From a virus (taxonomy: Duplodnaviria > Caudoviricetes), in the IMG/VR virus record IMGVR_UViG_3300021495_000004, positions 1 to 33,737 of that record: DNA of 33,737 nucleotides; one strand, given 5' to 3'. The position numbers and the translations under genes were made by a program. The stretch's first letter is position 1. The number at the start of each line of letters is the position of its first letter. Of the stretch, positions 1 to 31,972 are shown piece after piece. The notes below the pieces were generated by a model, which worked only from the letters and a program-made list of their open reading frames with translations, searched no databases and was not told the origin of the DNA.

Positions 1-111
1 ATCATCTGAATCTCCTGGAATCAGTTCTGTAGCTTTGCGTAATGCTTCTTTAATTTCATCAGACAGGAAATCAGCAGGGTCATAGAATCGATAATCTATG
101 TCGTGTTCATA
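1..111. repeat. Terminal direct repeat, copy 1 (circular assembly overlap)
   Basis: Bases 1-111 are identical to 33627-33737, and an ORF reads through the junction. Confidence 0.97.
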
Positions 112-222
112 CCAGGTTCTCCCGCAGACAGGACAGTAATATTTCTCTGGTTCTAACGGTGATAAATTTACCATTTTGATTAAGTCCCTGTGGCAATAGG
201 GACATTTAGGGATGGGTTTCAT
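1..222 (-). CDS. Small Zn-ribbon protein (77 aa) spanning the circular junction; continues at 33626..33615
   Basis: Not in the ORF track. Manual translation from ATG at 222 (RBS AAGGGGAG upstream) gives MKPIPKCPYCHRDL...YYCPVCGRTWYEHD...DSDDVDE*, with two CxxC motifs and stop TAG at 33615-33617. Confidence 0.8.
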   Translation of the reverse strand, partial: MKPIPKCPYCHRDLIKMVNLSPLEPEKYYCPVCGRTWYEHDIDYRFYDPADFLSDEIKEALRKATELIPGDSDD

Positions 223-240
223 GGTTTATTCTCCCCTTCG

Positions 241-316
241 TGGAGCTGGGGGGAATCGAACCCCCGTTCTGGTGTGTGATGTATCAATCACTGCACCAGC
301 GACACCAGTCAGCCCC
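241..316 (-). ncRNA. tmRNA-like tRNA-like domain (mini-tmRNA, Ala acceptor, no tag reading frame)
   Basis: Minus strand reads GGGGCTG ACTGGTGTCG CTGGTG CA GTGAT TGATAC ATCAC A CACCAG AAC GGGGG TTCGATT CCCCC CAGCTCC A. It has a 7-bp acceptor stem with G3-U70 and discriminator A, a perfect T arm, a stemless D loop with GG, and an extended helix in place of an anticodon arm. Confidence 0.7.
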
Positions 317-325
317 ACCGTCATT

Positions 326-1288
326 TTATTCTTCCAAAACTTCAATTTTTCGTTTCCAGTATTTGTATTTAATTGCGTATTGCTCTTTGACAGCATTGGG
401 AATATTGTATTTAGTAGTTTCAATCCATTTTCCTGAGACATAGAACTTGCCAATAATAGCAGTTTGACCCTCAAGCTTCTTTTTGAGTGCTTTGTCAAGA
501 TGTTTCCACTCGTCAGCGTAGGGTTTTAGCTCCATATATCGCTCGATTTCGCCTTCAAGTTCAGGGTCTTCTTTAATGTCAATTGTTTCTTTCAGATGTT
601 GCTCGGGGAGACAGATATGCCTGAATTCACAGCGTCCGCAGATTTCATGCTGGTATTCAATTCGTTTAGGGAGTGTTCCCTCTGCAACATGTTTATTGAC
701 TTGTTCTGCTTTCTTGACTGCTTGTTCACACACATCATAATCAAGCTCCACTTCAAGCACTTTGATTTGACCTGATGACTTATTTTTCAGAATAAAAAAT
801 CCCTTTTCCTTTTCCTCTAACAAGAGATAGAGATTCATCTGGATATAGTATCCTCTAATATGGTGATATTTGTGGAATTTTAAGTCATCGAGGATATTGA
901 TAGAATCAAAGATGTAGGGAGACATTGATTTTACTTCAATAGGATATGTCTTGCCATCTATGAGGATTTTGCCATCTATCTTTCCGGTAATTTGATATTT
1001 CGGCCACGAGAGTGCTTTCTGTTCTTCAATAACATCAAAGCCTGCTTCCCTGAGAGCTTCGAGGACTGCTTTTTCTTGGAGATGCCCCTCGTCAAAAATG
1101 AATTGCAATTCCACATCCGGAAGCGTTTTCTCCTGCCAATGCGTTCTCTGGTAGACAAGATAACGGAGACAGGGATGACCGAGCAGGCTCGCACGATTTG
1201 AGTTAACAGGCCAAATTTGTCTCTTTTTTGCCTTTGCTTCATAAATCTTGTCCTGGATGTATTCTGCAAGGGAGAGTTTGACTGTCAT
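326..1288 (-). CDS. Cas4-like PD-(D/E)XK exonuclease with Fe-S cluster ligands
   Basis: GKIDG...PIEVKS nuclease motif, QMNLY motif, N-terminal Cys (HPCLR) and C-terminal CGRCEFRHIC. Confidence 0.85.
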   Translation of the reverse strand: MTVKLSLAEYIQDKIYEAKAKKRQIWPVNSNRASLLGHPCLRYLVYQRTHWQEKTLPDVELQFIFDEGHLQEKAVLEALREAGFDVIEEQKALSWPKYQITGKIDGKILIDGKTYPIEVKSMSPYIFDSINILDDLKFHKYHHIRGYYIQMNLYLLLEEKEKGFFILKNKSSGQIKVLEVELDYDVCEQAVKKAEQVNKHVAEGTLPKRIEYQHEICGRCEFRHICLPEQHLKETIDIKEDPELEGEIERYMELKPYADEWKHLDKALKKKLEGQTAIIGKFYVSGKWIETTKYNIPNAVKEQYAIKYKYWKRKIEVLEE

Positions 1289-3761: not shown

Positions 3762-3790
3762 ATTATACACCAAAAAGTGAATTTTGTCAA
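3762..3790 (-). promoter_or_regulatory. Lytic (PR-like) sigma70 promoter, probably leaderless
   Basis: Perfect TTGACA-17-TATAAT followed by 6 nt and then the cro ATG; no SD sequence. Confidence 0.85.
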
Positions 3791-5119: not shown

Positions 5120-6172
5120 ATGCGTATCTTCAAAAGGGGTAAATATTACTGGATTGACTTTACTTTTCAGGGAAAAAGATACAGACGAAGCCTTAAAACT
5201 ACAAGGAAAGAAGTAGCAGAGCAGTATAAGGCAGAGCTTGAGCTTAGAATATTCAGGGGGGAATTTTTCGGTATTATCGAGACTCCAGTTCCCACTCTCA
5301 AAGAATTCGTAGAGAATACATACTTACAGTATGAACGCACCCACAAAGCATCGGGGACACAGAAAAGAAATAAATTGTTCTACAAAAATTTGCTAAATGC
5401 TTTCGGAGATACGAAGCTTTCAGACATAACTTTAGGAAAAGTTACACATTACTTGAATGTAAGAGGCAAAATAGCTGCAGCGAACAGGGAAATTTCTCTT
5501 TTAAGAGCTATTTTGAATTATGCCGTCAGATTGAAAGTTATTCCCTACAATCCCATCAAAGGGATAAAACTCCTAAAAGAATCCCCTGGACGGGTGCGAT
5601 ATTTAACCCAAGACGAATTTGTCAAGCTTGTAGAAGCCGCCTCATCGCACTTAAAAGCTATTATCCAAATTGCAGTTTTTACGGGGTTAAGAAAATCAGA
5701 CTTATTAAAATTAAAATGGTCAAACATCGATTTTGAAAATAAAAGAATCAGGGTGCATGTAACTAAAACAAATGAAATCAGATTTGTTCCCATGAACGAT
5801 TTAGTAATAGAGATATTGCAAAATCTCCCCCGCAACGGTGAATATGTATTCACTTACAAAGGTAAAAGGATAAAAGACATCAAAAGGGCTTTCACTACAG
5901 CCTGTATCAAGGCAGGTATCAGAGATTTAAAATTTCACGATTTAAGGCACACTTTCGCAAGCTGGCTGGTTATGTCAGGTGTGGACTTGCGAACTGTGGC
6001 AGAACTTATGGGACACAAAACGCTCAGAATGGTGCAGAGATATTCACACCTGAGTCCAGGACATTTACAGGACGCAGTCAATAAAATTGGCACGCTTGTG
6101 GCACAAAAAAATCAGGAAAAAGACAGCGGGGCGGTTAACATATTGAAAGACAAAAAGAAAGATGGAGCATAA
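5120..6172 (+). CDS. int: Tyrosine integrase
   Basis: TGLRKSDL, FHDLRHTFASW, LMGH and QRYSH catalytic motifs, plus an N-terminal arm-binding domain. Confidence 0.96.
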   Translation: MRIFKRGKYYWIDFTFQGKRYRRSLKTTRKEVAEQYKAELELRIFRGEFFGIIETPVPTLKEFVENTYLQYERTHKASGTQKRNKLFYKNLLNAFGDTKLSDITLGKVTHYLNVRGKIAAANREISLLRAILNYAVRLKVIPYNPIKGIKLLKESPGRVRYLTQDEFVKLVEAASSHLKAIIQIAVFTGLRKSDLLKLKWSNIDFENKRIRVHVTKTNEIRFVPMNDLVIEILQNLPRNGEYVFTYKGKRIKDIKRAFTTACIKAGIRDLKFHDLRHTFASWLVMSGVDLRTVAELMGHKTLRMVQRYSHLSPGHLQDAVNKIGTLVAQKNQEKDSGAVNILKDKKKDGA

Positions 6173-6347
6173 ATTTAAACCTTCTCCCTTACAAGCAGGA
6201 GGTCGGAGGTTCGAATCCTCCATCGCCCATTTGTTTTTTCTTAAGAAATTCAGGTTTTTGAGCAATTTTAACAATGTATGTAAAACCTTATTCTTCCCCA
6301 TTTTGGCACACTTAAGGTGCAAAAACATGGCACAAATATGGCACAAA
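6088..6347 (+). other. attP region with arm-type integrase sites
   Basis: TGGCAC(A) repeats at 6088, 6099, 6304, 6328 and 6339 flank the tRNA core; the tandem pairs are 11 bp apart. Confidence 0.75.
6188..6229 (+). other. attP core = 3' half of tRNA-Val(TAC)
   Basis: CTTACAA GCAGG AGGTC GGAGG TTCGAAT CCTCC ATCGCCC A runs from the anticodon loop to the discriminator, with no 5' half, immediately after int. Confidence 0.9.
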
Positions 6348-31070: not shown

Positions 31071-31566
31071 CTCTCTCCTCCAAATACCCGTGTTCTTTTA
31101 GCCATAGCCATAAATGGGCGAGGGCGTTAGAGAGTTTAGCGTCTTCTTCTATTATCCATTCTTCGCCCACAGGAGTTTCGTATTTAACCCATATCCAAGG
31201 TTGTCCTTTATCATCCTCTCCTCTTTCAATAGTGAGATAATACAAATGAATTACATTGTCTCTTGTTTCTATATTAACAGGCAACTCCCCCAAAATTTCT
31301 TCGGCAAGGGGAGCTTTAACAAAATCTACAATATTCGCAGGAAATCTGAATTTGTAATCCCAAACTGATAGATAAAGAAGTGAATATTTTTTGAATACAG
31401 GGGCATCAGGATTGACAAGAGGGTCAGCAAAATGTTCATCTTCTGGGCTTGTGTCAATATCCTCAAGGCGATATTTTACCCAATAGAATCCTCCGCCACC
31501 CTGAGGAAACCCCGCCTCTTTCAACTTTTTAGCGAGGTCTAATGAAACAACATATTTCTCAATCAT
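31048..31566 (-). CDS. Conserved-type phage hypothetical protein
   Basis: SLDLAKKLKEAGFPQ and AP...EI..ELP motifs seen in phage middle genes. Confidence 0.7.
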   Translation of the reverse strand: MIEKYVVSLDLAKKLKEAGFPQGGGGFYWVKYRLEDIDTSPEDEHFADPLVNPDAPVFKKYSLLYLSVWDYKFRFPANIVDFVKAPLAEEILGELPVNIETRDNVIHLYYLTIERGEDDKGQPWIWVKYETPVGEEWIIEEDAKLSNALAHLWLWLKEHGYLEERDEAGKNL

Positions 31567-31972
31567 CTTTGCCCTCCTCTAATAAATATTTATGTTCATA
31601 AATATTGCCGATAACTTCTATATCGCTTGCATGGAAATAGCCCAGCTCTCTCAGATTCTCAATAAACCAACAGCCCAATCGCATAAATACTTTGCCAATG
31701 CCCCACGGGGTTTTTATTATATCTCCCTCATATATCTCTTTCCCATTCCTGTCTTTGAGACCTGTGTATTGCATAATCCCTTTTACAACCTCATTCCACT
31801 TTTCTGAACCATAATCATAAGATAACCATTGCGTATAACCATCGCCTAAGGGATATTCTACTAATATATTTTTTAATTTGCCTTCACCATCAAAATCCAT
31901 TAAATGAATTGGTAAGATTTTGGGCTGACTGCCTATCAATTGTATACATACTTTAAACTTTATCTCTCTCAT
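31559..31972 (-). CDS. YopX family protein
   Basis: MREIKF, MQYTGLKDRNGKEIYEGDI and EVIGNIYE motifs. Confidence 0.92.
   Translation of the reverse strand: MREIKFKVCIQLIGSQPKILPIHLMDFDGEGKLKNILVEYPLGDGYTQWLSYDYGSEKWNEVVKGIMQYTGLKDRNGKEIYEGDIIKTPWGIGKVFMRLGCWFIENLRELGYFHASDIEVIGNIYEHKYLLEEGKDD

Follow-up and report, generated by a model that had tools for sequence, protein, structure and literature searches.

Genomic setting of the element

The window, by which we mean the whole 33,737-nt stretch of DNA that was analysed, represents the complete record of a temperate phage and carries a terminal repeat of 111 nt. It encodes an integrase, CI-like and Cro-like regulators, a lambda-like terminase and portal, and capsid and tail genes. 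The element considered here is a 76-nt stretch on the minus strand, at 241-316. Upstream of it lies a gene for a Cas4-like exonuclease of the PD-(D/E)XK type (326-1288, minus strand; PHROG 1990, E 2e-37, with the Pfam PDDEXK_1 match below cut-off), and the element starts 9 nt past the exonuclease stop, which ends at 326. Downstream is a small open reading frame with a weak zinc-ribbon profile match (1-222, minus strand), which runs off the start of the window; the purine-rich, RBS-like run of this gene begins 4 nt beyond the discriminator base of the element. Two YopX-family genes (1285-1680 and 31559-31972, minus strand) flank the element in the circular early region.

A putative promoter matching the sigma-70 consensus at 12 of 12 positions (3762-3790, minus strand) heads a leftward run of same-strand genes, which encode an HTH regulator, a CII-like protein, an excisionase-like protein, a YopX protein and the exonuclease. 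No promoter consensus was found within 600 nt upstream of the element, and the sole terminator-like match on its strand is at 2974-2954. The promoter is the likely source of the element's transcript, and the element would be co-transcribed with the operon early in lytic growth.

The tyrosine integrase gene (5120-6172, plus strand; PHROG 1, E 1.6e-83) is followed directly by half of a tRNA, the 3' half, with UAC (Val) in its anticodon loop (6186-6229, plus strand; partial tRNA match of 17.6 bits), which is likely to be attP. Because the integrase adjoins this tRNA-Val half, the element would not be the attachment site of the phage, and integration of the phage at ssrA is unlikely. A search for the tRNA-Val half gave no match in IMG/VR, nor, at up to two mismatches, in 802 genomes (401 each from two phyla). 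Those relatives of the integrase and the exonuclease for which an organism is named share only about 40-51% identity with them and belong to mixed phyla. The phage has no smpB gene detectable by a search that found smpB in all ten bacteria among 14 genomes, so any SmpB partner would be that of the host.

An ATG directly past the exonuclease stop, 8 nt before G1 of the element, opens a 32-codon frame that crosses the whole element (226-324, minus strand) and ends just before the next start; it has no Pfam match. A similar frame runs through the RNA of a related viral contig, L390 (3235-3345, plus strand). We rejected a reading frame through the RNA as a general feature of the wider family described below, as an ATG 3-15 nt upstream is not enriched (21 of 155 members, against 23 of 155 at a control distance, among the matches listed, with the frame open through the RNA in 12). 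The ATG frame appears to be what remains of the beginning of a gene that, in L390 and in a second related contig, L391, comes after the exonuclease.

Sequence and predicted fold

The element runs from G1 to discriminator A73 and was delimited, as a tag-less tmRNA made of the tRNA-like domain (TLD) only, with the Rfam tmRNA model, a family model and the sequence itself. The 5' strand of the acceptor stem (310-316, with G3 at 314) pairs with 248-242 in seven base pairs, including G3.U70, and the 3' strand together with the discriminator A at 241 occupies 241-248. Next comes a stemless D loop of 10 nt (300-309), which in the Rfam and family-model alignments ends with U17-C18-G19 (E. coli numbering), A20 being absent. 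The P2 hairpin (269-299) is predicted to comprise six base pairs (299-294 with 274-269), a 2x1 internal loop, five base pairs (291-287 with 280-276) and a 6-nt loop. It is joined by a 3-nt linker, AAC in place of the canonical GAC (266-268), in which the Rfam alignment shows the equivalent of A334 kept at 267, to a T arm of five base pairs and a 7-nt loop (249-265). The trailer reads CGA (238-240) where CCA would be expected, with C74 present, in agreement with the remark in the initial annotation that CCA is not encoded.

The P2 hairpin closes the site where the pseudoknots and the tag ORF would stand, 24 nt replacing 312 positions of the Rfam model. Between the P2 strands there are neither pseudoknots nor a tag ORF, so that the tag frame and pseudoknot ring of a standard tmRNA are both lacking.

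At 59% G+C the element stands out from the genome (40%), and its folding z-score is -3.3, with one of 200 shuffled sequences equally stable. Positions 303-308 of the D loop duplicate the 6-nt 5' strand of P2a (294-299, minus strand), giving two near-equal predicted folds. Because of this duplication an alternative pairing in which the D loop is buried is predicted to lie 0.7 kcal/mol below the TLD form at 37 C; at 60 and 75 C the lowest predicted energy belongs to the TLD form.

Assignment to an RNA class

The comparison with Rfam models that the initial annotation had proposed gave a clear separation. The tmRNA model RF00023 matches the element at 50.2 bits (E 1.4e-18) where 47 bits is the gathering score, and this is the sole gathering-level RNA match in the window. 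The tRNA model RF00005 gives 22.7 bits, below its cut-off of 29, and the mt-tmRNA model RF02544 does not match the element at E <= 1. ARAGORN calls no gene for the element. Model R1, a covariance model built from 113 other family members with both this element and that of mycobacteriophage DS6A excluded, scores the element at 50.8 bits (E 1.1e-10, on a rough calibration) and the DS6A RNA, which is listed as a 'TLD only' tmRNA (PMC4131195), at 63.3 bits.

Two competing identities raised in the initial annotation, a decayed tRNA and an att remnant of the host ssrA, were examined, and neither fits. The combination of D stem, 7-nt anticodon loop and RF00005 score above 29 bits that marks a canonical tRNA is not found, and a decayed tRNA was rejected on the score of 22.7 bits and the missing ARAGORN call. 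Remnants of att sites retain one end of the gene. Here both ends are present and paired, and the element lies 4.8 kb from an integrase that itself abuts the tRNA-Val half.

From these comparisons and the family data below we conclude that the element at 241-316 (minus strand) is genuine and conserved, a TLD-only tmRNA like that of DS6A, and belongs to a small sub-lineage in which elbow and cap are altered.

Close relatives

Relatives of the exonuclease are encoded by three viral contigs (L390-L392), none of which matches the integrase region. In L390 the exonuclease is 96% identical, and one additional gene separates it from the RNA, which carries three substitutions, each at a base unpaired in the window's fold, and has a run of C's one base shorter; the flanks of this RNA are unrelated to those in the window beyond a few bases. 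In L391, a 26%-complete contig whose exonuclease is also 96% identical, no copy of the RNA was found in the 2 kb downstream of the exonuclease. As one of two close relatives is thus without a copy in this interval, the element looks accessory.

A metagenome scan returned nine loci, namely the window's own contig, L395, L396 and six of a related 84-nt form. L395 and L396 have the same RNA ends and a different outer P2 helix. The near-identical 84-nt form, known from L122, L323, L327, L394 and L397-L401, has the same joint (no A20, AAC linker); its copies have a common TA-rich, promoter-like stretch upstream and differing downstream flanks.

The best match among sequencing runs is a hydrothermal vent metagenome, which may itself be where the window comes from; no RNA run is among the matches listed. 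We compared contigs from four other runs (three vent, one sediment; DNA contigs only), in which the matches end at the ends of the RNA; two of the runs have loose ends at 240 and 318. Seventeen substitutions at 16 positions were listed from the four runs, counting differences away from contig ends, all of them in P2 (273-296). The majority change loop bases or give G.U wobbles; the pair 291/276 is changed on both sides in one contig, and pairs are broken at 287 and 296. The acceptor, D loop, linker and T arm are free of listed substitutions. Among close relatives, then, the RNA is retained while its flanks change at its ends, and even its neighbouring genes differ.

At the junction of T stem and acceptor, the run of six C's is reduced to five in three JGI contigs (L390, 3243-3317; L395, 804-882; L396, 1412-1490), and the acceptor-T helix would lose one pair as a result. 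The missing C may be a homopolymer error, since it is seen in none of the Logan contigs of the four runs. A contig of 84 nt in run X5 (depth 3.3; window positions 235-264), with an exonuclease-like flank, apparently joins the 5' acceptor strand straight to the T arm, leaving an acceptor-plus-T-arm minihelix with the D loop and P2 deleted; this may be an artefact or a natural deletion.

Conservation across the wider family

A TLD-only search pattern that demanded no P2 pairing and allowed a P2 region of 13-43 nt gave at least 119 loci in 29 of the 64 parts of IMG/VR, 92 of them unique, from which we estimate about 260 in all. Pairs 1 to 7 of P2a form in 88, 90, 91, 86, 85, 81 and 73 of the 92 unique sequences among the matches listed, against 20-46 of 92 in slid-register controls, save for one control cell of 73. 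In 75 of the 92 listed, the P2 region measures 30-34 nt.

In a second pattern the acceptor was left unconstrained, and 120 loci gave 101 unique parsed sequences. Requiring GG in the D loop and at least five of six P2a pairs left 49, and a paired acceptor 48; the 53 rows dropped comprise tRNAs, the 3' ends of longer tmRNAs and some family members that fail the filter. Among these 48 the alanine identity is almost invariant (G3.U70 in 46, A73 and G1-C72 in all 48), and pair 4:69 covaries (GC 25, CG 13, UA 4, GU 3, AU 3).

Over nine pairs in 113 non-redundant members the covariation score is 0.855, against 0.153 for shuffles and 0.07-0.15 for slid controls, a value biased by the pre-filtering of these members for pairing; the P2a count over 92 sequences is unfiltered. 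The acceptor was left out of this score and of the structure of model R1, because the MAFFT alignment staggers its 5' strand; acceptor pairs were counted by script instead. The UCG and xAC motifs were built into the search patterns, and their family-wide conservation is therefore not independent evidence.

All scans pooled, the family has at least 155 unique parsed sequences, at least 121 of them from viral contigs, and ARAGORN does not call these members as such. CCA is encoded in 31 of 155 and C74 in 134 of 155, among the matches listed. A short CCGCAYG cap is found in 47 of the 155 listed, and the element is without this usual family cap. Very short forms also occur, with 62 nt (L283, L310, L329), 61 nt (L072) and 59 nt (L062), in which P2 has only 5-6 bp and a small loop; three of them are in Saccharibacteria assemblies. 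Many matches in genome contigs (Acidobacteriota and Rokubacteria groups) proved to be the 3' portions of full-length tmRNAs, the apparent 5' end being false and unpaired, and were rejected; a filter for seven of seven acceptor pairs removed them. Among 50,697 phage records none covers 80% of the element, and in cultured phages a typical family member was matched once, weakly, at 73%.

The initial annotation had read the element as a tmRNA tRNA-like domain without its mRNA-like domain, and had taken the intact pairing as a sign of selection. Rfam, the covariation in the family that its suggested search for homologues has now turned up, and the close orthologues bear out both points.

Genomic context and hosts of the family

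For the flanking genes we scanned 76 of 118 ORFs with profiles, the other 42 being mostly opposite-strand ORFs and near-duplicates. No integrase was found among the 76. Six loci adjoin a head protease or major capsid gene, two lie between terminase and portal genes, and others are near replication or regulatory genes; tRNA genes lie within 1.5 kb at 15 of 60 loci. A position in the late head operon, as at L002, L012, L028, L033, L134, L137, L047 and L056, would result in high expression or in a processing site.

These positions bear on the possibility that the element acts in cis, as a signal at which RNase P and 3' nucleases cut the polycistronic transcript and so set the stoichiometry of its parts, the RNA being a by-product. 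The element fills its intergenic gap, 9 nt from a stop and beside an RBS, with no promoter consensus in the 600 nt upstream, and the family is often found inside operons (the six head protease or major capsid loci and the two terminase-portal loci). We consider this account unlikely, however, as any tRNA-like fold would suffice for cutting, which requires neither G3.U70, A73 nor a tmRNA-type elbow; the RNase P signal mentioned in the initial annotation thus leaves the kept G3.U70 unexplained. The variable neighbouring genes, even in close relatives, and the 15 of 60 loci near tRNA genes also argue against it.

Copies occur in assemblies titled Actinomycetota, Bacillota, Chloroflexota, cyanobacteria, Patescibacteria, Spirochaetales and Desulfobacterales. 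A full-length tmRNA is also present in eight of nine checked bacterial genomes with a true family member; in a tenth genome, G010, the supposed member was false. In four genomes both RNAs can be read from the 5' end, and there the short RNA differs from the genome's own ssrA in P1 and P2 and has the family's A-rich bulge and short cap. Because of these differences and family features, the short RNAs look like an old phage-borne family and not like fresh deletions of host genes. One Pseudonocardia genome (G004) has two different short RNAs (L409, L413) besides ssrA, and one Gracilibacteria assembly has two 68-nt forms (L279, L374).

That the element is a non-functional relic, whether of a tRNA that has decayed or of a host ssrA left as an att remnant or by deletion, is exceedingly improbable in the light of these results. 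A relic might show the departure of the joint from the canonical form, the C missing from the T-stem/acceptor run in three JGI contigs of the subtype, and the low-depth contig without D loop and P2. Against this stand the sub-threshold tRNA score (22.7 against 29) without an ARAGORN call, the two paired ends and the integrase abutting a tRNA-Val half, the absence of integrase genes among 76 neighbouring ORFs of the family, the dissimilarity of short RNAs to their own genome's ssrA, and the restriction of listed substitutions in relatives to places outside the acceptor, D loop, linker and T arm.

The putative SmpB joint

We place the element's residues in E. coli tmRNA numbering by anchoring them on the Rfam consensus. 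In the structure described in PMC8363625, A15, U17 and A334 form a pocket for Trp122 of SmpB, and C18 and G19 stack on SmpB. Of the SmpB contacts named in that source the element keeps U17, C18, G19 and A334, and it departs from the canonical elbow in having U for A15, no A20, and A for G333 (linker AAC and not GAC). With A20 missing, G333 replaced by A and A15 by U, its binding to SmpB may be weaker than that of members with A20 and GAC, which account for 107 of the 155 matches listed.

The AAC linker occurs in 10 of 155, and this joint, in which P2 directly follows UCG and is combined with AAC, in 7 of 155, among the matches listed; three of those seven are parsed one base out of register owing to the missing C. 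Position 20 covaries with the first base of the linker (A/G 107, U/C 12, A/C 12, C/U 7, A/U 4, among the matches listed), and this suggests a non-canonical pair between them at the elbow. The TLD identity given in the initial annotation thus stands, while its description did not mention that the joint for SmpB departs from the canonical form in lacking A20 and in having AAC as the linker, that the family cap is missing, or that the D loop duplicates the P2a 5' strand.

Comparison with known systems

The RNA of DS6A (tmRNA Website tmID 11587; Phage__Mycobacterium.9; L402, 1979-2058) shares with the element the standard gene order, an alanine acceptor with G3.U70, a stemless D loop, a capped P2, a T arm, the lack of a tag ORF and an unencoded CCA; both are phage-borne, unannotated, about 80 nt long and matched by model R1. 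They differ in A20, present in the DS6A RNA and absent from the element, and in the linker, CAC against AAC; an A-rich bulge and the short CCGCAYG cap are found in the DS6A RNA, and a 5-bp outer helix ending in a 6-nt loop in the element. The element lies in a likely early operon, the DS6A RNA between gene 33 and the DNA polymerase III gene.

With standard bacterial tmRNA (RF00023) the element has the whole tRNA-like domain in common and is missing the pseudoknots, resume codon and tag. Full-length phage tmRNAs, those of the mycobacteriophage Bxz1 group and of Streptomyces phages, are likewise phage-encoded and have the 3' T arm and acceptor in common with the element, but they carry a tag ORF. 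Organellar tmRNAs without a coding sequence (RF02544; about 65 bp in the Mallomonadaceae plastid) resemble the element in having a TLD without the tag region, as described in PMC11915505. They replace the tmRNA of the organelle, whereas the phage family co-exists with a full host ssrA in eight of nine genomes, and RF02544 does not match the element.

Among 97,179 tmRNAs curated in 2025, nine standard-order genes lack a coding sequence, and one phage example is named in the accessible text (PMC11915505). Our literature search covered mostly main texts outside the subscription journals, and in these the wider phage family is not described beyond mentions of DS6A. In the accessible text of PMC10690425, tmRNA appears only in the title of a reference; the 10,006 candidate RNAs in its supplement could contain the family unnamed.

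A proposed function in ribosome rescue

We lean towards the reading that the element is an alanine-charged competitor for SmpB that dampens SsrA tagging by the host. It is favoured because of the match to Rfam and model R1, the kept alanine identity and SmpB contacts, and the precedent of inhibition by RNAs of the DS6A type. According to PMC4131195, citing Mao et al. 2009, 'a similar molecule', whether chargeable or not, strongly inhibits tmRNA, perhaps through titration of SmpB; PMC11915505 attributes the inhibition, in E. coli, to the DS6A form itself, so that the two citing papers differ on the inhibitor. The SmpB decoy put forward in the initial annotation thus has a precedent in print.

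The element would be transcribed with the early operon from the promoter at 3790-3762. By analogy with tmRNA and tRNA biochemistry, it would be released by RNase P and 3' nucleases and receive its CCA by addition; it would then be charged by AlaRS through G3.U70 and A73, and be bound by EF-Tu and host SmpB. On entering a stalled ribosome it would accept the nascent chain and add alanine, with no tag template to follow. Large amounts of it would compete against tmRNA for vacant A sites as well as for SmpB, SsrA tagging would go down in lytic growth, and stalled phage products would as a net effect be less tagged and degraded. Release of the ribosome would be left to back-up rescue factors or to a later round of host tmRNA. 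The non-canonical joint and the competing fold predicted at 37 C weaken the competitor reading.

Plain titration alone fails to explain why G3.U70 is kept, because the inhibition described in PMC4131195 is reported regardless of charging. The kept alanine identity, unneeded for titration, therefore leaves room for active tag-less rescue or alanine tailing, in which the RNA, with host SmpB, would add one or more untemplated alanines and free ribosomes or alter the fate of the chain, aiding the host system. We regard this as possible but doubtful. TLD and SmpB are described as making polyalanine in vitro without a template (Shimizu and Ueda 2006, via PMC3929946 and PMC2481249), mitochondrial tmRNAs without a coding sequence are said to co-occur with SmpB (PMC11915505), and an alanine identity kept in 46 of 48 members exceeds the needs of a plain sponge. 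An RNA without a stop codon, on the other hand, cannot by itself release the ribosome, the sole in vivo test of a similar RNA reported in the sources consulted gave inhibition, and full tmRNA is kept in eight of nine genomes that host family members.

The element might instead be a decoy for host defence proteins that recognise the elbows of tmRNA or tRNA, such as the SmpB-like domains of CoCoNuT systems, which we think very unlikely. The CoCoNuT helicases have SmpB-like OB folds, for which binding to tmRNA is predicted (PMC10542128), and a patchy, accessory distribution is typical of counter-defence genes; the interaction of these SmpB-like domains with tmRNA is itself only a prediction.

Implications for phage biology

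Taken alone, this locus represents a modest gain, as its kind has already been published in the 'TLD only' RNA of DS6A. The family is common in uncultured phages, with at least 155 unique sequences, at least 121 of them viral, against one phage example named in the accessible text of PMC11915505. One could speculate, with little confidence, that phages of many bacterial phyla combine a tag-less tmRNA with the host's SmpB so that a template-free alanine mark on stalled chains replaces the SsrA degron, the joint of this vent lineage having been refitted to the SmpB of its own host. Natural elbow variants like this element are probes of what SmpB binding requires. If the family is functional, RNA mimicry of tmRNA, directly testable at a size of 76 nt, would be a common phage route for retuning ribosome rescue.
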